From Reclinomonas americana ATCC 50394 (lineage: Eukaryota): a stretch of 57,645 nucleotides of DNA. The position numbers were made by a program, and so were the translations under genes. Under the pieces are notes generated by a model, which was not told where the DNA came from, ran no database searches, and saw only the letters and a program-made list of their open reading frames with translations. Of this stretch, positions 138-55,014 are shown piece by piece (position 1 is the stretch's first letter; every line of letters starts with the position of its first letter). The DNA lies in the NCBI GenBank assembly GCA_048213135.1, contig PS015105.1, positions 53,638 to 111,282 of the forward strand. Reading direction: 5' to 3'.

Positions 138-1140
138 TTACTCCTCCTCCTCCGCGTCCTTGCCGTACGAGTTGAACTGCGACCAGTAGGCGTGCATGTC
201 AAGTGCCACCACACAGCTCTCGGCGACAGGAGCCGCCGCGTCCTTCTCGTACTCGTGCAGCACATCGAGGGTGTCCGGATCGGCAATCGAGCCCAGCGCT
301 GTGGGATGGCGATTGAGATCTTATTCTTCTTCTCCGACACCTGCCCTGTCCTCAGCACTCTCTCTCTTCCCCCTTCCCTTCCCACCCTTCCCGCTTTCAC
401 CCACCTTCTGCCGCCTCATGCCGCACCATGTAGTGCTCATCCTTCTTGGCGAGCGCCTTGCGCAGCGCATCACACGACACCGGATGCTGCAACTGCCCCA
501 GCACAAACGCACACTCGTGACGGAACAGCGCCGACTCATCATTCAGCATCCCATCGCACAGCGCCAACACCGCCTCCTCCGCCCGCGCTCCCCCCTGCGA
601 ACCGCGATTGCGCAGCGAAAACATGGCACGGTACCGCTCAAACAGCGGCAGCGTGGCATCCAACAGCGTCGCCCGCAGCTCCTCCGTGCTCAGCTTGCGA
701 TCCTTTTGCTTGGGCGGCGCCGGGTCCACCGACACCCACACCGATCGCTCCGCTTCGGCGCCTTCAACTGCAGCAGAAGCTGCGACTGCCTTTTGCTGCT
801 GTGCCCACTCGATGCGCTGCACGGCCAGCTCGCATGTCTCGCGCACCTCGCGCACATTCTCGACCTCCGCATCCGCGTATCTTCGCAGCAGTGGGAGCGA
901 ATCGACGCAGCCGATTGCTCCCAGAGCCTCCGCGGCCTTTTTTTTGTTGTTGTTGATACGTGAGGTGAACAACAGAGAGACAGAGTACATAGTAAGAGCA
1001 GTGTACCTCGTGTCGGACCATGACATCCTCGTCCACGGTCTCCACCAGTCGATTGAGAATGGGAATGGCGACCTCGTGCCCAATCTGACCCATGTTGTAG
1101 GCGATCTCGTGGCGCAGCAACGCAGAAGGGTCCGCGAGGC
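138..1140 (-). CDS. DOHH: Deoxyhypusine hydroxylase (HEAT-repeat metalloenzyme), 5' part lost in gap
   Basis: Spliced exons 1140-1007, 936-405 and 298-138 (GT-AG introns 1006-937 and 404-299). They give four HE motifs (SALLRHEIAYNMGQ, MVRHEAAEALGAIG, SALFRHECAFVLGQ, MVRHEAAEALGSIA) plus EVRETCELA, SVDPAPP and LFERYRAMFSLRN. TAA at 140-138. Confidence 0.96.
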
Positions 1141-1224
1141 CTTTATGTGAAGAGGAGAGAGAGAGAGAGTGAGAGTGAGAAACTCCGTTTTCAATCTCCG
1201 GATGCAGCAAGGACTCTGCAGTAT

Positions 1225-1457
1225 CTCTCTCTCTCACTCTCTCACTCACTCACTCACTCACTCACTCACTCACTCTCTCTCTCTCTCTCTCACTTACTCC
1301 CACTCTCTTCGCTTACTCTCACTCTCTCTCTGTCTCTCACTCTCTCTCTCCTCTCCCTTCCCTCTCTCTCCCTCCCTCACTCACTCACTCACACACACAC
1401 TCTCTCTCTCACTCGCTCACTTGCACACTCTTTCCCTCTCTCACTTGCACACTCTTT
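1225..1457. repeat. CT/CACT microsatellite tract running into an assembly gap
   Basis: Visible (ct)n and (cact)n runs. Confidence 0.9.
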
Positions 1458-20492: not shown

Positions 20493-21185
20493 TCACTTTC
20501 CGCCCCCAATCAACGATGTCACAGAGTCCTTGGCCTGCGTGAACAGATCCTTGGCGCAGCGCACCAGATCCTCTCCAAGCGTCGGCCGACCCGCACCCTA
20601 CGCACACACACGCATGCATGTCACACACTCACACACATAGACACACTCTCCACTCTGCGCTTGGCACTCACCCACTCAGCGTCGAGCGCACCCGGCTTCT
20701 GATACTCCACCTCCGCCCTACGAGATGCGTCGCGTGTCAGATCGCATCCGCCGCATCTCACACATGGAGAGCGAGAGAGGCATGCACACTCCACACACAC
20801 GCGAGACACAGAAAGACAACAGACAAGGGTGCACACGCAGAGGAGAGCACGAGAGCAACAGAGCAACAGAGACATGTCCACATCTGCGCGCAACTTGGTG
20901 AGCCCCCTGCCGGCGCCAAAGCCCGCGCCAAACGTCAAGATGGACAGCGCCACCGCCGGACCTGCTCGCTCACTCTTGAGACTCTCTACCGTAGCACGCA
21001 TGCACAGCACAACATAGGCGACACGTACGTTTCCGAGCAAACAGCAGCGACGGCAGTGCAGCGACCACCACACCAGAGCCGACCTCGCGTGAGACCTGGC
21101 TCATGGAGCGGTTCCATCGCTCACCAGCCTGGAAGTCGGTCTTGATGGCCTCGACCTTGGACGACGACGACGACGGGGACGACAT
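20493..21185 (-). CDS. Small (~125 aa) hypothetical protein with one Gly-rich hydrophobic segment
   Basis: Four exons joined in phase by GT-AG introns: MSSPSSSSSKVEAIK...VGS/ESLKSERAGPAVALSILTFGAGFGAGRGL.../AEVEYQKPGALDAEW/GAGRPTLGEDL...GGGK*. Confidence 0.6.
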
Positions 21186-21237
21186 GAGCTCTCTGTTGCA
21201 GCAGATAATGATCGGATCGATCAACCCGCCTTTTTCG

Positions 21238-22973
21238 ATGTTGCGCCTTGCAGCGATCGCCTTGCGACTTGCTCCCGCGAGGTGCGGTCGCGCATGCTCA
21301 TCGAGCAGCTCGTTTGCTGCACTGGCGGCCGCCGATGCCGCGTGGAAAGGCGGCGATATCAGCCAGGCGCTGCAATTGGCTCGAGAGGCCACGGCCGAGG
21401 CCACCGATCCGCAAGCTCTCTGTGCGTGCTCGTCTGTCAGTGTGCGTGCGTTGCTGGGGAGGGACTCACACTGTGGTGGAGTAGTGCGTGTTGGCGATAT
21501 GCATCTCGTGGCGGAGGAGCTGGCGACGGCGTTGGAGTGGTACAACAAGGTGTTGCGCGTGGATCCGAGTGAGGTGGCGGCGTACACGCATCGTGCGCAG
21601 TGTTTTGAGCGGATGCAGCAGTTTGGAGAGGCGGTGGTGCGTGCTGATGCATGGCCTCTCACTGACTGTGTGACTGACGGCATTGTGTTGTTCAGCGCGA
21701 CTATGAGGAGGCGCATCGATTGGTGGTGGAGACGGCGACCGATGACATGGACGACGATGCGCTGCGGCAGACGAGAGCAGAGATCCTCATGTGGTTCGTC
21801 TGGCGTGTGTGTGCGTGACTCTCTATGTGCACATGCGGTCTCACGCTCCTGCCGCACAGCAAGGGCTACGCTTTTCTCAATCAACACGCCAAGCTGATCG
21901 AGGCTGCACGCCAAGAGGACGATCCACAGGTTCTTCTTCTTGCTGTCTCTGTCTCTCCCCGACTGGTTGCTCACTCGGCTGCAGCGGCGAGCGTCGCCGG
22001 AGATTGCGGACACACTAACTGCGGCGATTGTGTCGTACTCGGAGGTGCTGGCGCTCGTGCCCGACAACGTGGACGCCATGTACGGTCGCGCCCTGTGTTT
22101 CGTGCGTGGCGGTCAGTACGATGCGGCCATTGTCGATGCAAAGGCCTGCTTGCAGATCGACGACGGCCACGTTCCGTGCAACCACGTGCTTGCCGAGTGT
22201 TTCCAGCTGAAAGGTACATCGCTCGCCGCCGTCCGCCCTCCGCCCTGCGCAGCTTCCCGTGTTCTTACTCTCTCTCTCTCTTGACTGACAGAGCAATGGG
22301 CGGAGGCTGTGGCCTACTACACGCGCTACCTCGACGGACTCGATGCGTACGTGACACAGGCGATGCAGCGTGGTTTGTGAGTTGTCTCCGACAAACCCTG
22401 CACCTTCCCTCATCCATGCACACAGGTGGCCAGGGTGTTGGCGAGATTCCGCGTGCCATGTGTCAGGCGGCCTTCAAGCGCTCCGTGTGCCTCGTGAACA
22501 TGAACAAGTTCCAGGATGCTGTCGAGGGCTTTACGGGATACATTAGCGTTTCGTCCATCGCCCCCTTTTCCCCCTCCCCCGCTCCTGTCTCACCGACTCC
22601 TTCCTTATTCACAGCTGGTGGAGATGCTGGTGCAGAACTCGCCGCCCGACGCGGCCCCCTATTGGACCGATCGTCTCGGCCTGGCGTACTTGCGGCGCGG
22701 CAGGTGCTGGGCGGCGCTGAACGAGAACTTCAAGGTACACGCACCGCACGCACATATCACGCACATTCTTGTCGCACACTGTCCTCACGAGGCTCGTGGC
22801 AGGCGGTCGAGGATTTTACGCTGGCGGCGAGGCACATTCCGCAGCACTTTGACATTTTCGAAGCGAGAGCGCAGGCCTGGCGCAACTTGGCCATGCACGA
22901 GAATGCGGAGAAGGATATGCAAGAGTATCGCCGACTCAAGCGCACCGCCATCTTCGAGGTGTACAACGAATGA
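21238..22973 (+). CDS. Tetratricopeptide-repeat protein with putative mitochondrial presequence
   Basis: TPR-like units ALEWYNKVLRVDPSEVAAYTHRAQCF, YSEVLALVPDNVDAMYGRALCF and AVEDFTLAARHIPQHFDIFEARAQAW. N-terminus MLRLAAIALRLAPARCGR. Confidence 0.85.
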
Positions 22974-40565: not shown

Positions 40566-43500
40566 CTATCTAGGGTGGTGGTGATGCTGCAGCTGCTTCT
40601 TTTTCGAGTGCTCCAATATGAATGCGAAGTCCTCGGCCACAGCAGTGTATCGTGAAATGCGTCCACCGTCGCCTGCGTGGCCTCCCACGGACAACACTCG
40701 GCACACAACAGGGGCCGTCACACCGTGCTGCTGACGGGCAGCTCGCAAACGTGCCACGTACTTGACTGGATTCCACGTCGGCACTCGCGCATCGTTCACA
40801 GCCGACACGACGAGCACTGCCGGGTGTGCCATGCTGTCACACAGGCATGTCAACGAAAACAACATCTCACCAGTGAATTCAAGAGCAGAAGGTGCATACC
40901 GCTGTTCAGGGGAAGCCGACCACCTATGCACACTGCTGTCAATGTTCTCGTAGGGACTGTACGAGGCCACATAGTCGTAATCCATCTGGTTGTTCTCCAC
41001 ATCGCCCCATTCCTGGTTTCAGCACATGCAGTGAGCGGTGCGGGGAGAGGAGGGGCAGTGAACACATTGTGGACCTCCGTGTCAATCGAAGAAATGGCAT
41101 CCTTGTGCGACGTCATGCTGGTGAGAACGTCCACAAACGGAGCCTTCAGCACGGCACTCCGAAACAGGTCTGGTCGCATGTTGATCGACGCCGCTGTGAC
41201 AACAGATCGTCAGACGGGGAATGAGAGGGAGGTAGAGGGGGAGGGAGTCGCCGCGAACCAACGAGCAGGCCGCCGGCACTCATACCCCACGCAGCTAGGT
41301 CACCCTCTGCCGCATACTTGGACTGCTGCAAGTGTGCGGCACAGGCCACGAAATCGTGAAACGAATTCATCTTGTTGTGCAGCTTGCCGTTCTTGTACCA
41401 CGACTGTGAGAATTCACCACCACCACTGCGCACAAGCACTGTCAGAATGCAGAAGCAGAGAGAGTGTGCTAAGCAACCTACCGCACAAGGGCTACCGCCA
41501 CAATCCATCCACGGTCGAGCAGGCTGAGGTAGCCTGGATCGAAATTCGTGTCGGCCGAGATGCCGTACGCACCGTAGCCACGCAGGAATGTCGGGTTGCT
41601 GTTCACCATCACTTGTGAGTGAGACAAGAATCGCGTGAGACGTGGCAGTACCAAACAGACCCGTCAACCAGGTCGCGTAGGCTCCTGCGGTAACCCACAA
41701 GAGTCGGCACTTGCACACCGTCGTGCGACGTCGCATGCACGACCTCCAGGGTGTACTCGGAAAAATCAATTTGCCGCTGCCCGTCTGCGCCACAGTCCAG
41801 TGATTCGTTGCGGGGGAGGGGAAGAGAGAAAACACACTTGTGCATACCAAAGAGCTGCACTCGATCCAGCTGCCGACACTGACCAGTGCGCAGGTCCAAG
41901 TCACACGTGGTGAGTGGATGCACCGGAGACGAGTACGTGAAGCGGAACACCGCATTGTCGACATCCTGTGGCACATCACGTGAGTACGAACGAACACAGC
42001 GAGTGGGAGAGAGAGACAACAAAAAATGCTGTGCCAGTACCGCATTGGCTCCTGGCTCCACGGCCACGGCTCCCTCCGGCAACTCAGCCTCCACCAGCTG
42101 ATATCGCGACGGCTGCAACACGCGGCTCGCACCAGCAGTCGGCACAAGTGCCTGATGGGGAGCAGCAGCTTCGGGTGAATTCGGCCGAATGTTAAACCAA
42201 CGCCTGCGTACCGACGATGTGCGTGTTGGTGGTGAGGGCTGTTGGGTGGAGGCACCACCACCAACATCGTGCAATACGTGCACGAACGCCCGACCGCCAC
42301 TTCTGCCAAAGATCACCACCGACGACTGCACAACCAAGCGTCAGCATTCAAGGCCCGCAGATTGCGCGCCAGACATCCCACCGAAAACACGTGAAAGCCA
42401 TGCGGACACTCGCCCGGCAGCGGTCTGTACACATCGGTCCATGCGTGGCGGTCGGCGATCTTGTCGAGTGGGGCGCACGACAACACAAAGTCGTCTGGCG
42501 AGCCGCCGGCGAAGTTTTGCAGAATGTAGAAGAGGCCCTGATCGAGAAAGGGGAAAGGGTTAGGGAGGGAAGTGAGGGAAGGGAGAGGGAAGGGAGAGGG
42601 AAGGGAGGAGAAGGGAGAGGGAAGGGAGGAGAAGGGAGGGAAGGGAGGGAAGGGAAGGGAGAGGGCAGGGAGGGAAGGGAGGGAAGGGAGGGAGGGGAAG
42701 GGAAGGGTGTGGGGAGGGAGGAAGGGAGGCAAGGGAAGGGAGGCAATTGAGAGAAGGGAGGGGAAGGGAGGGAAGGAAGGGAGGGAAGGGGAAGGGAAGC
42801 GAAGGAAAAGGGAAGCGAGGAATGAAGGAAAGCAGGCAGGATGGAGGAATGAACCAAGGGTGGAAGCAAGGAGGTGAAGGCAGCATGATCGACAAACAGA
42901 GAGGAGTGTGTGAGAGATTACATGACTCTGCGCAGACGCACTTGGTAGTGGTCCACCAAAGTGACCTGGTCTTGCTTCTGACCCGGCACTGCTGTCAACT
43001 GCGTTGGCTGTTGCGTCGGGGCGACAAACACGGTGGACTCGCTCCGACTGGCCAGTGTCAAAACAATGAACTCCTGCGATGAGCAGAGAGGTCACCAATT
43101 GTCTCTCAGCGTGCACAAGTGTCATCACACAAACCTTGTCGCGCGACACATGCACGTCCACCAGAGTGGATGGATCGGCCGCATACAGCAGGCGCACATC
43201 GGTTGCCTGCGGCGTTCCCAGCACATGGACCAGCACCTGCAGTGACGACAGCATGAGAGAGTGTGTGTGATTGAGCGAGGACAGTGAGAGACAAGTGCTG
43301 CACCTCGGAAGGTCGGCGGTTCTCGTCGATTCTCGTGTACACCACTCTCTCGTGGTCGAGGTACTCAAAGGCAAGGACGTTGCGCAGCTCACAGTGCAAC
43401 ATGCCATCAACCACGTTGCGCACGTACATGTCATACGTCTCCGTACCGTGGGCATCCAGCAGGAAACCAAAGTGACTGCCGGCGATCAGCACCGCTTCAC

Positions 43501-49327: not shown

Positions 49328-49431
49328 CTGCGCACAAGAAAAATGTCGGCAGGTGGGTCGGCGCCGTCACCAGCAACGACCCGCACTGTCACTGTGCGCT
49401 TTCGCGCGGAGCAGGTGTGTGTAGGAGATAC

Positions 49432-49655
49432 CTCTCTCTCTCTCTCTCTCTCTCACTCTCTCTCTCTCTCTCTCTCGTCTCGTCTCGTCGTCGTCGTCGT
49501 CGTACGTCGTACGTCGTACGTCGTACGTACGTACGTCGTCGTCGTNNNNNNNNNNNNNNNNNNNNCCGGCCGGTCCGTACCACCGACGACGAACCGACCC
49601 GACCACGTCGTACTCGTGTCGCGTTCGTTCGTCGGCGGCGACGTGTGTGTGTAGA

Positions 49656-49692
<37 letters not shown>
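49432..49692. repeat. (CT)n and CGT/CGTA microsatellites around a 20-N gap
   Basis: Directly visible. Confidence 0.85.
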
Positions 49693-49694
<2 letters not shown>

Positions 49695-49877
49695 TGTCGG
49701 CGTTGCGTTCCTGAACGATCAAGCAGGTGACTGCAGAGTGGGCAGAGGTATCTTCCGGGGCCTCCATCCGCGGTCTCATTGGCCAGCTGCTGTCAGTGCC
49801 TCGAGAGTCACTGAAGCTCAGTTGAGTCGGCGGTCTCTCCCTCGCTGCATGCCGATCTCTCACGAGAGAGAATTGTC

Positions 49878-50186
49878 ATGATCATGGCAGTCGATGGTTC
49901 GCGAGTGTTGACGGATGACGATCTGGCGGCCTTTTCTGGGCACGTGCTGATGGCCATGGGCACAAGGGTGGATCCGGCCACCGACTGCTCACCCGAATCC
50001 ATTCAGCTGATCATGCGTTGCGCACAATTGAACACACTTGTTAGTGCTTCCGATTTCGTGAGTGTGTTGATCGTGCCTGGATGTGCAGAGCAAATGCCGG
50101 GTGTGACACGCGATGCTGTGATTGCGGCACTTCGCCGGCACAAGCACGATGTGGTCGATGCCATTCTCGATCTCGGCAACTCGTAA
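49878..50186 (+). CDS. Small protein with NAC-alpha/HYPK-type UBA domain
   Basis: After removing intron 50017-50088: IQLIMQQMPGVTRDAVIAALRRHKHDVVDAILDL. Confidence 0.75.
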   Translation: MIMAVDGSRVLTDDDLAAFSGHVLMAMGTRVDPATDCSPESIQLIMRCAQLNTLVSASDFVSVLIVPGCAEQMPGVTRDAVIAALRRHKHDVVDAILDLGNS

Positions 50187-50369
50187 GTAAACGTCGGTCT
50201 TTTTTCGGTTTTATCAGGGGCAGTCGTCCACAAGGAGAAGGAGGCGGAAAGAACAACGACCGAGATAGGTCAAGCGAGGCACAGTGGTGTGCACTCGAAT
50301 GTATAAAGCGGGGAGAGAGAAAGGAAGGGAGGAAAGGATTGTACGCAGCAACAGACACCAGAGAACATA

Positions 50370-53300
50370 TTAGCAGCATCCACTCTTCTTGCGACCGGCG
50401 GCCGTCAGCTGCGGTTGCGTCGGGTCGTCCAGCACACTGTGACGTGACCTATCAGAGGAGAACAGAACGACACGAATGATGAGGGTCAGCGACAGGAGCA
50501 GTGGCACCAAACGCAAGGAATGGACGCAACGGCGGTCGAGCCAGCTCCTCCGGCGTCTTGCGCGCAATCAGCGCCAGCGTAAAGTCAGCCACAATGTCCT
50601 GCAGGTGCTTGGGCGTGTCGGCCACCGCCGAGGCGCGGAAGACTTTTGTGAGACCCTCGCTTCGGCACAGACGGGCTATTTGGTGCTCAGGAACCGTCGC
50701 CGGCAAGTCGGCCTTGTTGACCACGATCGATTCCATGAACAGCTCGCCACCCTGCCGCCGTGCAGACTCGGCAATGGCCGCTCGCTTCCAGTGCGGAATC
50801 GCCTGTGTGCGACAACACCAAACATGAGCTCATTCCCATCTCCATCATGGACGATCACGGCCACCAGCACACCTCCAGTGACGAGGGATCAGACTGATCG
50901 AACATGAACATGATGCCGTCGGCACGGTTAAAGTAGTTGCCGAGCAGCTTGCACTCGCGATCCGAGCCTTGCGTGTCCATGAGCTGCGTGCAGCAACAAT
51001 GGTGAGACACGCTGTGCACCGGCTCTACAAGATCTGCACACCGACTTCCATGACGCACCCTGACCAGAGTGACCGACTCGTCGGGGTGTCGGAGGCGCAG
51101 AATCACCACATCCACACCGACGGTAGGTGTGGTCGCTGCACAATCGCATCGCGGATGCGTGTGAGAAGGAGAAACGATAATGATTCTGATTCCATGCGTG
51201 TCATGCACTCACCAGCAACGTGCTTGCCAGTCGAGTTGGCACAGAAATGGCTCTTGCCCACAGACGAGTTACCGATGAGCAAAATCGTGACAGTGCGGCG
51301 AGCCTTGACGCCACCGCTCTCGTCCTATACCCACATGAGTAACATAAAGGTCAAAAGGCCGACAAGAGCACTCGTACCATGAATTGCAGCTCCTGTGCCT
51401 CCGCGCTCGGCTCATTGAACAGCGAGCCACCACGCTTGGCCAGCCACTCATCATCCAGTCGGCGCAGGTCCTCCTGCATCGCAACCGAGTGAATCGACTG
51501 ACTTCAACAACGTGACAAGGAAATACAACCAACCTCAGTCAACTCTACGGCTTCAACGGCCTCCTCCACCGCCTGCTCAAGAGAAAGACAGAGAATTGGC
51601 TACTGCTCAAAATGTGGATCTCACGAATGGAAACCGCACCTCCGAAGCACCAGTCGCGACACTGCCAGCAGCCTCACCGGCAGCGGCCGATGCATGCGAC
51701 GCAGTGGCATCGGCGCGGTGCACCAAGTTACGCTGTCACACACAACAAGCACGAATAAGACAAGATTCGTGTGGTGAATATGACGAGCAGTGACAACACA
51801 CCAGTCCCTCGGTGACCGTGCCCGTGGCCGAGTGCACACGAGATGCGGCCGAGTCACGCAAGTGCTCAGCCTCGTGGGCGGCCTTGGCGCGAGCCTCTTC
51901 CGCGGCCTTCTGTGCACGCTCAGCCTGTGCATGCGCCTCCTGTGCAGCCTTGGCGCGAGCCTCTTCAGCCGCCTTTTGCGCATGCTCCGCCTGCGCGTGC
52001 GCCTCCTGCTCAGCCTTGGCACGAGCCTCCTGTGCAGCCTTCTCTGCGCGCTCCGCCTGAGCGTGAGCCTCCTGCGCAGCCTTGGCACGAGCCTCCTCAG
52101 CGGCCTTTTGTGCATGCTCCGCCTGTGCATGCGCCTCCTGCGCAGCCTTGGCACGAGCCTCCTCAGCGGCCTTGCGCACTCGCTCCGCTTCAGCATGCGC
52201 CTCCTGCTCGGCCTTGGCACGAGCCTCCTGCGCAGCCTTGGCTGCACGCTCCTCCTGCGCACGCACCTCAGCCTCAGCAGCCTGTGCCTTGGCGCGGGCA
52301 TCGTGCTCAGCCTTGGCACGAGCCTCCTCGGCCGCCTTGCGCACACGCTCTTCCTCGGCATGCGCTTCGTGCTCAGCCTTTCGGCGAGCCTCCGCTGCCT
52401 TGGCCTCGGCTTCTGTGCGAACCTTCTCCCGCTCAGCAACAGCGTCGTCCACGGCGTGATGAGCCTTTTCTCCGGCAGCCTTCTCCGCCTCGTGCACCGC
52501 ACCCTGTGTGAGCGCCGCGAATCAGTGAAATCTCACACGCGCACAGTGTGTGAAACCACGCGCACCTCTGCAGCACCAGCAGCCTTCTCGCCCTCTCCCA
52601 CCATGTGCGCACGGAAAAAGTCCTGGTGAATGGCAGGAGTGTCTCCCAGCTTCGCCTTGTTCTCCAAGCGCAATTCGTGGGCCAAACGCTGTCATCGTTC
52701 CACAACTCCCCCCGCATCAGCAACCGAAAATCTCCCAGCAGCGTGAGAAGGATACACACCTCGGCCTCTGCGTCCACTGCATCCTGCGCAGACGCCGTCG
52801 CCGTGGTGGTCGCTGCCGGCGCATCACCCATCACCTGATTGTCGAGTATGAGTGTCATGACAAGAGTGATCCCGACGTGAGAGAGAGTGGGTGGACAAGT
52901 AACACACCGCCGAGGCCACAATACTCGACGCCACTGCTCCGGTCTCCTCCGAGTCCGACTGCAGAGAGTGTGCGCGGGAAGAACAAGTGAGTGCAGAAGT
53001 CGACAATGGCTGGACATGTTCCCCGCGTGACCTCGAGGCTCTCCGGCGACAAGTACACAACACCCCTCACTCATGTGCCAGGAAAGAGCGCGCACAAACA
53101 TCGCGACTCGCAAGATCATCGATGCAGTTGTCGGAATACACACATTGTATCTTCCTCACACACGCCCACTCCCCTGCTTCCTCTCTGTCTCTCACACACA
53201 GAGACCACAACATACCTCAGTGCCAGAAGCATCAGAGTTCTCAGCACTCTGCACACAGAGAGAGAGACAGAGGACATATTATGAGTTGCAAGATTGCGAT

Positions 53301-53430
53301 TGAAGACAAGTCTCGTCACGCAACCGCTGCAGCCTTCTCCGCGGCCGGTGCACTCTCCGCACCACCCTTCTTTCCTCCCTCTGCGCACAAACACAAACAC
53401 ACACGCGAGTGGCGTCAGTCGCGTCGACAT
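50370..53430 (-). CDS. Large Rab-like GTPase: acidic N-terminus, 22-aa helical repeats, C-terminal Rab domain ending KKSGCC; start uncertain
   Basis: Phase-0 exons 51732-51640, 51572-51534 and 51473-51378 link the repeat exon to G1 GNSSVGKS, G2 PTVGVD, G3 DTQGS, G4 NKAD, G5 ASA and the CC prenylation motif. Confidence 0.8.
51870..52400 (-). repeat. Coding tandem repeat, 66-nt period (AEEARAKAAQEAHAQAEHAQKA)
   Basis: gccttggcNcgagcctc recurs at 66-nt spacing (51881, 51947, 52013, ~52079, ~52145). Confidence 0.92.
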
Positions 53431-53633
53431 TACGACATGGCCAAACAACATAAACTGAACATGAAAGAGCAAAAAACACACAAGCAGGCAAGTGTCGAAA
53501 GACAGTGAGTGGAGACGCAACTCTTCTTGCGGCGATTCGACGGCATGGCGTGTGGCGATCAAACAAAAGTGCGATGGTTTGCTTGGTGGACAAATGCATG
53601 CGCACGAGCACCACTGTCCATCACCTGTTTGCG

Positions 53634-55014
53634 ATGGCGGCGACAGAGGCAGCGGGCCCTCAGTCGCCCTCTCGCGTTATTCTATGGAAAGACCCCGTGT
53701 CGGGTGCCGAGGCGCGGCAACGACGAGTGATGATAACCCCGCGCGCGTTGCAGATTTCTCCGTTGTCNNNNNNNNNNNNNNNNNNNNNNNNNNNNNNNNN
53801 NNNNNNNNNNNNNNNNNNNNNNNNNNNNNNNNNNNNNNNNNNNNNNNNNNNNNNNNNNNNNNNNNNNNNNNNNNNNNNNNNNNNNNNNNNNNNNNNNNNN
53901 NNNNNNNNNNNNNNNNNNNNNNNNNNCGCGGAGGGAGGCGAGAGGCAAGAGGTGTTGTTGGAGCGAGCGGTGCAGGCGCATTGGTGGCAGTCGGTGTGGC
54001 ACATGCCGACGGCGTTGTGGGTGCGTGTTGAGAGAGAGAGCGTTCTCTGTGGTCTGTCGCTCATGCGTGGTTTTAGGTGTGTTACTGGACGGGTGTGTCG
54101 GTGCATGGGGGTGTTTTGGTGCTGTGTGCGCTGCTGGCGGCGAGTGGAATCTGCTTGCTGGCTGGCCTCGCCAACGCCCCAATGCTTCTGCTGGCGTACG
54201 CCATGGTGTCGTCGCTCAGTGCTGTCGGGTACACGATGTTTGGCGCGTTTGGCGATCAGCTGGTGAGTGCAGAACAAGGCGAGGGTGGCATACCTCCACA
54301 TATTCTCATGTGATAGGAAACTCGTAGTTGCTGGAGATCTGTTTCCTTGGTGCACTCGCTGCGCCGTGGTGGTCCACTGGCGTCTTTGCTTCGGGCACAC
54401 CGGAACTGTCGCGCATCGCGCAGTGGCTGTTTCGGTGGCTCTCGAGTCGATTAGCCGCTGGTTTGCATTCCCCCACTGTCTGATTTTTTTGTGGGCGCTC
54501 ACTTCCACTCCCACACAGCTCCGCTGATCGGCAAAGTGGCGGCGGCGCGATGCGCGCTCGACAATGCATGCGTGTGGAACGCGCTGGTGGCCACGAGGTA
54601 AGTCCGCGTCGCTGCATGAGCTCACTTGCGTGCCCGCTCACGGGTGTTCCACACTGCAGCGATCCTTCATCGCCACTGGCCAACGCCGCCGTCATGTGGT
54701 CGCTGACGCTGTTGCGTTGACAGTGCTGCCGGTGCAATCGATGTTTCCTTCTCGCTCACCCTCGTTGTTCATGCAGACCGCTTCTGCTCCTGATTCCACA
54801 CTTTGTGCCACAACGCGTCGCTGCATTGGCGGTGCTGGTGGACGCTGTCGCAGTGCAGCCGTCGCTACTGTCCATTCTGCGCGTTCTTGCTGCGTTGTGG
54901 TCACTGGACGACGGCGTGCTGCACGTCGTGTCGCCTCCGTGGTTGCGCAGCAAGTACGACGAAGTGTGCCGGAGATTAGATCAGCAACAGCAACAACAAC
55001 AACAACCACAATGA
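53634..55014 (+). CDS. Hypothetical multi-pass membrane protein, exon structure partly unresolved
   Basis: Hydrophobic segments VLVLCALLAASGICLLAGL, MLLLAYAMVSSLSAV and AALAVLVDAVAVQPSLLSILRVLAALW. Poly-Q end; internal gap. Confidence 0.5.

Follow-up and report, generated by a model that had tools for sequence, protein, structure and literature searches.

Gene model and exon structure

We analysed a 57,645-nucleotide stretch of DNA from Reclinomonas americana ATCC 50394 (GenBank assembly GCA_048213135.1, contig PS015105.1, positions 53,638 to 111,282 of the forward strand), hereafter referred to as the window; all positions are counted from its first nucleotide. The window has a GC content of ~58%, short GT..AG introns, and eight N gaps. 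On its minus strand, a continuous frame of 15 exons and 647 codons was built by splice-site joining from ATG 53546 to TAA 50370, and its predicted product is a long Ala-rich repeat helix followed by a divergent small-GTPase domain that ends in two cysteines. The exon structure is self-consistent: each exon is preceded by AG and followed by GT at the model junctions, and no stop codon occurs before TAA 50370. All 14 introns have GT..AG ends and contain more T than A on the sense strand, with lengths of 53–257 nt (53–82 nt in 12 of them). No N gap lies within 50370–53546, the nearest being 53768–53926, and a local tblastn search with the model detected no further copy in the window. Three of the 14 donors (introns 0, 1, and 13; 53521–53516, 53324–53319, and 50530–50525, minus strand) carry the unusual hexamer GTTGCG; the remaining donors are of the GTG, GTA, and GTT types, and most acceptors (10 of 14) end in CAG.

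Coding potential was scored with an unsupervised codon log-odds model, which was self-trained on 20 open reading frames (ORFs; 11,100 nt) outside 50200–53800 and checked on five held-out, homology-anchored G-domain exons, all of which were positive. Scores were positive for all 14 exons scored, and the model frame was the best of six in 13 of them. The best-frame score was +1.5 bits or lower in 11 of 13 introns, the exceptions being 52759–52689 (+7.1 bits) and 50872–50803 (+6.1 bits). The GC content is 0.52–0.71 in exons and 0.45–0.58 in introns.

The proposed first exon (exon 0, 53522..53546, minus strand, as for all exons below) is 25 nt long and holds the ATG, with 8 codons that encode the polybasic sequence MPSNRRKK. 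An in-frame stop lies four codons upstream, and the exon ends in phase 1 at a GTTGCG donor, from which a 141-nt intron leads to position 53380. The first-pass annotation had let the element begin at ATG 53430. That start was rejected because its frame is wrong relative to the coding-like exon 53380–53325, into which it does not continue, and its coding score is negative compared with +6.6 bits for this exon. A short upstream frame at 53547–53620 (minus strand) runs from an ATG ~23 codons upstream to the stop four codons before ATG 53546, and could be an upstream ORF or merely 5' leader sequence.

Exon 1 (53325..53380) is Gly/Lys/Ala-rich and scores the +6.6 bits given above (scored as 53378–53325, best of six frames). 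Exon 2 (53216..53248, 11 codons) is the weakest of the model, with +0.9 bits in a frame that is not the best and a third-position GC content of 0.36. Exon 3 (52908..52958), acidic and Ser-rich, scores +6.1 bits, and exon 4 (52760..52834), which carries an alternative in-frame ATG at 52831, scores +8.4 bits. Exon 5 (52566..52688, 41 non-repetitive codons) scores +18.2 bits and matches no Pfam family at E ≤ 0.1. Frame-preserving GT/AG pairs were selected to build the N-terminal half of the model. Exons 2–9 all have lengths divisible by 3, and each can therefore be skipped in frame. Besides ATG 52831, in-frame ATG codons inside the model are located at 51479, 6 nt upstream of the exon 9 acceptor, and at 51380, at the end of exon 9.

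The repeat stalk

Exon 6 (51802..52503, 234 codons, residues 122–355) scores +128 bits and consists of about nine units of 22 residues, e.g. AHAQAEHAQKAAEEARAKAAQE. Tandem Repeats Finder reported a period of 66 nt (6.1 copies, 81% match, 51869–52269), and the self-identity of the repeat protein peaks at lags of 22, 44, and 66, in agreement with the 22-residue (66-nt) and 11/22 periodicity that had been described earlier. The composition is 37% Ala, 20% Glu, 9% Arg, 8.5% Lys, 7% His, 7% Gln, and 2% Asp, and Asp, Glu, Lys, and Arg together account for ~40% of the residues. Large hydrophobic residues number only 11 of 234 (nine Val and two Leu), and Pro is absent. The regularly spaced His residues noted in the first-pass annotation were confirmed by counting by unit: His occupies unit position 2 in five of seven units and position 7 in two of seven.

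Comparison of the six best units (15 pairs) gave 21, 45, and 124 differences at codon positions 1, 2, and 3, respectively, with 84 synonymous versus 66 non-synonymous codon differences, and two of the repeat units encode an identical 22-residue peptide with different codons. The excess at third positions indicates that the repeat is coding and came under protein-level constraint after the units had been duplicated. A reading in which the plus strand of the repeat is coding was rejected, as the opposite-strand frames score −44 to −119 bits compared with +128 bits for the model frame.

The helical nature of the stalk is supported by AlphaFold2, which, run on the repeat exon with no alignment, confidently predicted one unbroken helix over residues 2–233 with a mean predicted local distance difference test (pLDDT) value of 90.6. 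If straight, the helix would be ~34 nm long at ~0.15 nm per residue. Pairs of opposite charges at the i,i+4 spacing number 45, compared with 18.1 ± 3.5 in shuffled sequences, none of 5000 of which reached 45; the numbers at other spacings are 12–22. When the repeat is placed on an 11/3 helix, positions 1, 8, 12, and 19 form an all-Ala stripe, and this stripe could permit helix–helix packing. The label "coiled coil" is doubtful because of the scarcity of large hydrophobic residues, and a single stable helix appears to account for the charge pattern no less well than a coiled coil does.

With respect to family membership, Pfam matched the repeat exon only to Apolipoprotein, and weakly (E 0.0089, 16.2 bits, cut-off 90). 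A match to LEA_4 (PF02987) was absent at E ≤ 1 in the Pfam scan, and the nearest cluster in a protein language-model search carries LEA_4 with a score of 0.76, which serves as a lead only. Of the earlier comparison with LEA-like or hendecad coiled coils, the 11/22 periodicity holds. The helix seems to resemble 11/22-residue amphipathic repeat proteins in style and, judged by its profile matches, to belong to none of those families.

The G domain and the C-terminal tail

Five exons encode the G domain and the tail. Strand β1 and the P-loop GNSSVGKS (G1) are in exon 10 (51213..51324), which has weak P-loop matches to Pfam Roc and MMR_HSR1. Exon 11 (51059..51135) contains switch I, TVGVD (G2), and strand β2; exon 12 (50873..50983) contains DTQGS (G3, switch II); exon 13 (50531..50802) contains NKAD (G4), SAV (G5), and the C-terminal helix; and exon 14 (50370..50448) encodes a hypervariable tail that closes the spliced frame with KKSGCC and the TAA. 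The motifs of exons 11 and 13 were located in the spliced model. The five G boxes are in the canonical order at model residues 449 (GNSSVGKS), 473 (TVGVD), 497 (DTQG), 560 (NKAD), and 588 (SAV), and their spacing agrees with that in H-Ras. The catalytic Gln that follows DxxG is replaced by Ser (DTQGS).

The family and structure tools were given contiguous pieces of the G domain. Pfam Ras (PF00071) has a gathering threshold of 21.6 bits. Exon 12 (37 residues) matches it at positions 42–87 of 162 with 12.9 bits, below the cut-off, and Ras is the top family for an 87-residue switch piece consisting of exon 11, the in-frame intron 11, and exon 12 (16.6 bits, E 0.0059), followed by Roc (11.9 bits) and Arf (11.3 bits). 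Among solved structures, the switch region in exon 12 is matched best by the RASEF G domain (E 0.025–0.05) and then by Arf and Rab1, none of which is significant. Exon 13, a 90-residue piece with G4 and G5, has no Ras match at E ≤ 1 in Pfam and no GTPase match at E ≤ 10 among solved structures; its language-model neighbours are EutP/PduV and Arf/Ras fragments with scores of 0.90–0.93. AlphaFold2 on exon 13 alone gave a pLDDT of 52.9, too poor for a fold search, and the helix-strand-helix-strand-helix order in this poor model is compatible with the C-terminal half of a Ras-like fold. Taken from its motifs and these matches, the G domain appears to be a very divergent Ras-superfamily GTPase that is Rab-like.

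Two further interpretations of G-domain segments were examined. Intron 11 (50984–51058, minus strand) is 75 nt long, in frame, and stop-free, and its retention would add 25 residues between strands β2 and β3; a coding reading was rejected, since none of the three frames has a positive codon score (−4.8, −7.3, and −2.0), and the segment resembles a true intron. The stretch before the P-loop, …KARRTVTILLIG… (51214–51324, minus strand), is similar to the region of G-alpha subunits where the N-terminal helix meets the P-loop. The apparent kinship (E 0.00016) arose because two matches of 10.5 bits each were summed over an engineered tandem chain, and it was rejected because each match alone has an E of ~9 and the domain is of small-GTPase size. 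The likeness is probably due to chance.

The first-pass annotation had called this part a prenylatable Rab. The small-GTPase G boxes and the CC tail are indeed present, and the Rab identity is weaker than this name implied in view of the 16.6-bit Pfam score and the Gln-to-Ser replacement. A few true Rabs also lack the catalytic Gln, so the Ser does not exclude Rab membership. RabF1 is roughly kept (VGVD), and the other RabF motifs retain about a quarter of their positions or fewer, as judged by eye. The product ends in SGCC, which fits XXXCC, and XXXCC is included among the geranylgeranylation motifs in the legend of Figure 1 of PMC5902227. The Rab label appears to rest mainly on this ending.

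In agreement with the first-pass annotation, no EF-hand was evident: the PROSITE EF-hand loop pattern had 0 matches in the 647-residue model, and no Pfam EF-hand family matched exons 5, 6, and 9, which were long enough to be scanned.

The link between stalk and G domain

Three exons connect the repeat exon with the P-loop exon. Exon 7 (51640..51732, 31 Ala/Ser/Gly-rich codons) scores +5.5 bits, exon 8 (51534..51572, 13 codons) scores +9.4 bits, and exon 9 (51378..51473, 32 codons, with the ATG 51380–51378 at its 3' end) scores +21.4 bits, in each case in the best of six frames. The positions and phase 0 of these exons (51732–51640, 51572–51534, and 51473–51378) in the first-pass annotation proved exact, with AG and GT flanking each, as did the claim that they join the repeat exon (52503–51802) to the P-loop exon (51324–51213) without a stop, in a product ending in KKSGCC before TAA 50370.

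That the link exons are open says little on its own, because 50%, 54%, and 31% of composition-preserving shuffles of exons 7, 8, and 9, respectively, also stay open. Likewise, the frame would be kept even if the link exons were skipped, since all three lengths are divisible by 3. Their codon scores are more informative. Among 5000 shuffles each, 55, 0, and 0 reached the scores of exons 7, 8, and 9. Among equal-length open segments of the window flanked by AG and GT, a null set that itself includes real exons, 27.6%, 2.5%, and 1.7% scored as high (n = 254, 362, and 240). The segments between the link exons (69, 67, and 60 nt) have GT..AG ends, a GC content of 0.45–0.47, and more T than A, and in these respects are like the homology-anchored introns of the G domain. 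Around the link exons, the GC content alternates sharply between introns and exons, as 0.45, 0.68, 0.46, 0.62, 0.47, 0.62, and 0.45.

Searches for relatives

Exon 13 gave only two spurious matches, one to a protein with ankyrin repeats and one to a protein with Ig-like repeats, in a collection of 1.84 billion representatives, and no relative in a word-indexed collection of 5.8 billion proteins; in metagenome contigs, none of its 220 pattern matches was confirmed. In the word-indexed collection, the repeat exon had four low-complexity matches, none with a Ras domain, and the 87-residue switch piece had no relative. The searches with exon 13 and the repeat exon detected no orthology to animal Rab44, Rab45, or Rab46. 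A Rab fused to such a repeat helix did not turn up in a narrow literature search and may still have been described.

One gene or two

We infer that all 15 exons belong to one mRNA and that a single intron-rich gene (53546–50370, minus strand) encodes a stalk + GTPase protein of ~647 residues, a reading to which we assign a probability of about 0.58. The proposal of the first-pass annotation that stalk and Rab form one protein thus holds for the anatomy, and a single gene is favoured, not proven, by the codon statistics and by the composition of exons and introns. Several points weigh against this reading. The support for a single mRNA comes from sequence statistics, and the codon model behind these statistics is unsupervised and was trained on little sequence. 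Exon 2 lacks a coding signature, that of exon 7 is modest (27.6% of comparable segments match its score), and the nine consecutive phase-0 introns are in part a product of the construction. Pfam Ras stays below its gathering score on each contiguous piece scanned. Because no relative of the architecture or of either part was found in the collections searched, neither the fusion nor a function can be backed by conservation. ATG 51479 and ATG 51380 could each start a GTPase of normal size with a typical N-terminus. The genome is compact, as the stop of a convergent ORF lies only 184 nt from TAA 50370, and separate, closely packed genes are therefore plausible. With regard to the tail, Rab geranylgeranyltransferase needs the Rab escort protein for recognition of the RabF1–F4 surface (PMC5902227), and Rab-type prenylation is not assured here because this surface, as judged by eye, is poorly conserved.

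Several of these points speak for two genes on the same strand: a repeat-helix gene that reads through after exon 6 to a stop at 51736, and a separate GTPase of ~250 residues from ATG 51479 or ~217 residues from ATG 51380, with exons 7 and 8 as an open, non-coding spacer. Both ATG codons are in frame, and the one at 51380 gives a 17-residue lead-in to the P-loop, as is typical of small GTPases; moreover, open frames of the lengths of the link exons are common (31–54% of shuffles), exon 7 is weakly coding-like, the convergent stops are 184 nt apart, and no fused relative was present in the collections searched. Nevertheless, exons 8 and 9 (+9.4 and +21.4 bits) exceeded 5000 of 5000 shuffles and fall within the top 2.5% and 1.7% of the open AG/GT-flanked segments, and the segments between the link exons are intron-like in length, GT..AG ends, GC content, and T excess. 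With an upstream gene that stops after exon 6, only chance could account for the coding signal of exon 8, and a start at 51380 does not explain the strong signal of exon 9. A split between exons 8 and 9, with exons 7 and 8 in the upstream gene and the GTPase starting at ATG 51479, fits poorly, as it leaves only ~24 nt from stop to start. We therefore regard two genes as possible and clearly the less likely arrangement.

It is improbable, in our estimate, that the locus produces both forms, a long stalk + GTPase isoform and a short one that starts internally and comprises the GTPase alone, with the link exons optionally skipped. Such isoforms would be permitted by the lengths of exons 2–9, all multiples of 3, and by the in-frame ATG codons at 52831, 51479, and 51380, and there are precedents in the long and short isoforms of mouse Rab44 (PMC8016136) and in the short non-Rab and long Rab forms of CRACR2A (PMC4300414). 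This possibility, however, is an elaboration of the one-gene and two-gene readings from which the sequence alone cannot separate it. Least credible of all is a decaying or never-expressed locus, i.e. a pseudogene or mis-assembled repeat with a long frame and no product. The locus is an orphan at the sequence level, the motifs of its G domain have diverged and lost the catalytic Gln, tandem repeats are easily mis-assembled, and eight N gaps occur in the window; yet the 647-codon frame is intact over 15 exons with canonical splice sites, none of the N gaps falls within 50370–53546, and the third-position excess among the repeat units points to protein-level constraint after duplication. On balance, the single gene appears to be a well-supported model and not a demonstrated protein.

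Comparison with known systems

The closest known counterparts of the predicted protein are the mammalian large Rabs, namely Rab44, Rab45/RASEF, and Rab46/CRACR2A-L. They share a long, helix-containing N-terminal part followed by a C-terminal Rab-type G domain and lipidated cysteines, the lipidation being predicted here, and among solved structures it is nominally the RASEF G domain that matches the switch II exon best (E 0.025–0.05, not significant). In contrast to the large Rabs, no EF-hand was found, the helix is a 22-residue tandem repeat of low hydrophobicity instead of a heptad coiled coil, and the G domain has diverged much further, with Ser in place of the switch II Gln. The N-terminal domains of mammalian large Rabs have been described as mediating self-association and localisation (PMC8303950, PMC7645795, PMC12522834). 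Among protists, the nearest counterpart is Entamoeba histolytica RabD2 (EHI_164900), whose N-terminal extension is likewise described as driving self-association and localisation (PMC12522834). That extension has 69 residues, is rich in Glu and Lys, and is predicted to be partly disordered, and the Rab domain of RabD2 is conserved with the catalytic Gln, of which a Q136L mutant was used (PMC12522834). The present model differs, in a comparison made by description, in its ~430-residue extension with a ~230-residue Ala-rich helix and in its atypical G domain.

The stalk is similar to single α-helix (SAH, or ER/K) domains in its long unbroken helix, its enrichment of opposite charges at i,i+4, and its almost complete lack of a hydrophobic seam. 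Such i,i+4 pairs are given as a signature of stable single α-helices (PMC5347031, PMC5812594), and SAH domains are described as stiff connectors or constant-force springs between domains (PMC5812594, PMC4183817, PMC5347031). Unlike SAH domains, which consist mainly of charged residues according to PMC5812594, the repeat has ~40% charged residues and 37% Ala.

The 22 = 2 × 11 periodicity and the Ala-rich, charged repeats are shared with group 3 LEA proteins (LEA_4) and apolipoproteins A1, A4, and E. The stalk differs from the former in having no Pfam LEA_4 match at E ≤ 1 and from the latter in having no Pro, as apolipoprotein repeats carry a helix-breaking Pro, and it differs from the 11/22-residue repeat families in general in that its hydrophobic face is formed by Ala only. 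We know of no member of the LEA or apolipoprotein repeat families that is fused to a GTPase.

Neighbourhood of the locus

The convergent ORF mentioned above (49815–50183, plus strand) spans 123 residues from stop to stop and has a weakly UBA-like C-terminus (UBA_SIK3, E 0.043; UBA_HYPK, E 0.066). Farther from the locus, long (CT)n/(GA)n microsatellites surround a 20-N gap at 49367–49730, where both strands contain long Arg/Glu and Leu/Ser ORFs that are spurious. Of 91 long ORFs of the window scanned with Pfam, the ones with clear matches are limited to HEAT_2/HEAT_PBS at 400–1233 (minus strand, E 1.8e-12) and Peptidase_S9 at 41149–42312 (minus strand, E 2.9e-13), together with a weak TPR at 20995–21894 (plus strand). 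Most of the long ORFs have no Pfam family, as expected with short exons in a divergent eukaryote.

Proposed function

Read from the N-terminus, the protein would begin with a polybasic tip (residues 1–15) and an acidic low-complexity stretch, together ~120 residues, and continue with the ~230-residue unbroken helix of 22-residue Ala/Glu/Arg/Lys/His/Gln repeats, a 76-residue linker, the G domain, and the CC tail. The C-terminal cysteines may carry a lipid, attached by Rab-type geranylgeranylation or by S-acylation, which would hold the G domain on a membrane with the help of the basic residues ahead of them. The replacement of the catalytic Gln by Ser suggests slow GTP hydrolysis and a long-lived GTP-bound state. 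The helix would then act as a stiff spacer that places the N-terminal region tens of nanometres from the membrane, as a built-in tether, ruler, or adaptor arm. Alternatively, by analogy with the large Rabs and RabD2, it may serve self-association through the Ala stripe. The line of His residues could render either the spacer or the self-association sensitive to pH or metals.

Rab-type small GTPases normally recruit separate long tethers or motor adaptors. To our knowledge, the known large Rabs with N-terminal modules of their own are a few animal EF-hand proteins and one Entamoeba Rab with a short charged extension. We offer one speculative proposal, which we think unlikely, that the locus joins Rab and tether in one polypeptide. 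It would be a lipid-anchored, slow-hydrolysing GTPase with its own monomeric rod of ~34 nm, made of recently expanded 22-residue units, with a line of His on one face and a polybasic tip that binds membranes or nucleic acids. The distance from membrane to membrane or from membrane to cargo would then depend on the number of repeat copies, and the rod could become more or less stiff on protonation of the His residues or on binding of metal. Its origin would be independent of that of the animal large Rabs with EF-hands, in a lineage for which the collections searched contain no detectable relatives.

Ordinary annotation would miss such a gene because its exons are short, its G-domain pieces are below threshold, and the collections searched contain no relatives. 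If stalk and GTPase are one protein, the locus would represent an independent invention of the large-Rab idea with a stiff, repeat-built helix as the module. The length of this helix would be adjustable through gain or loss of repeats, and the protein would lend itself to testing how much it matters how far a membrane-bound switch is from its distal end.

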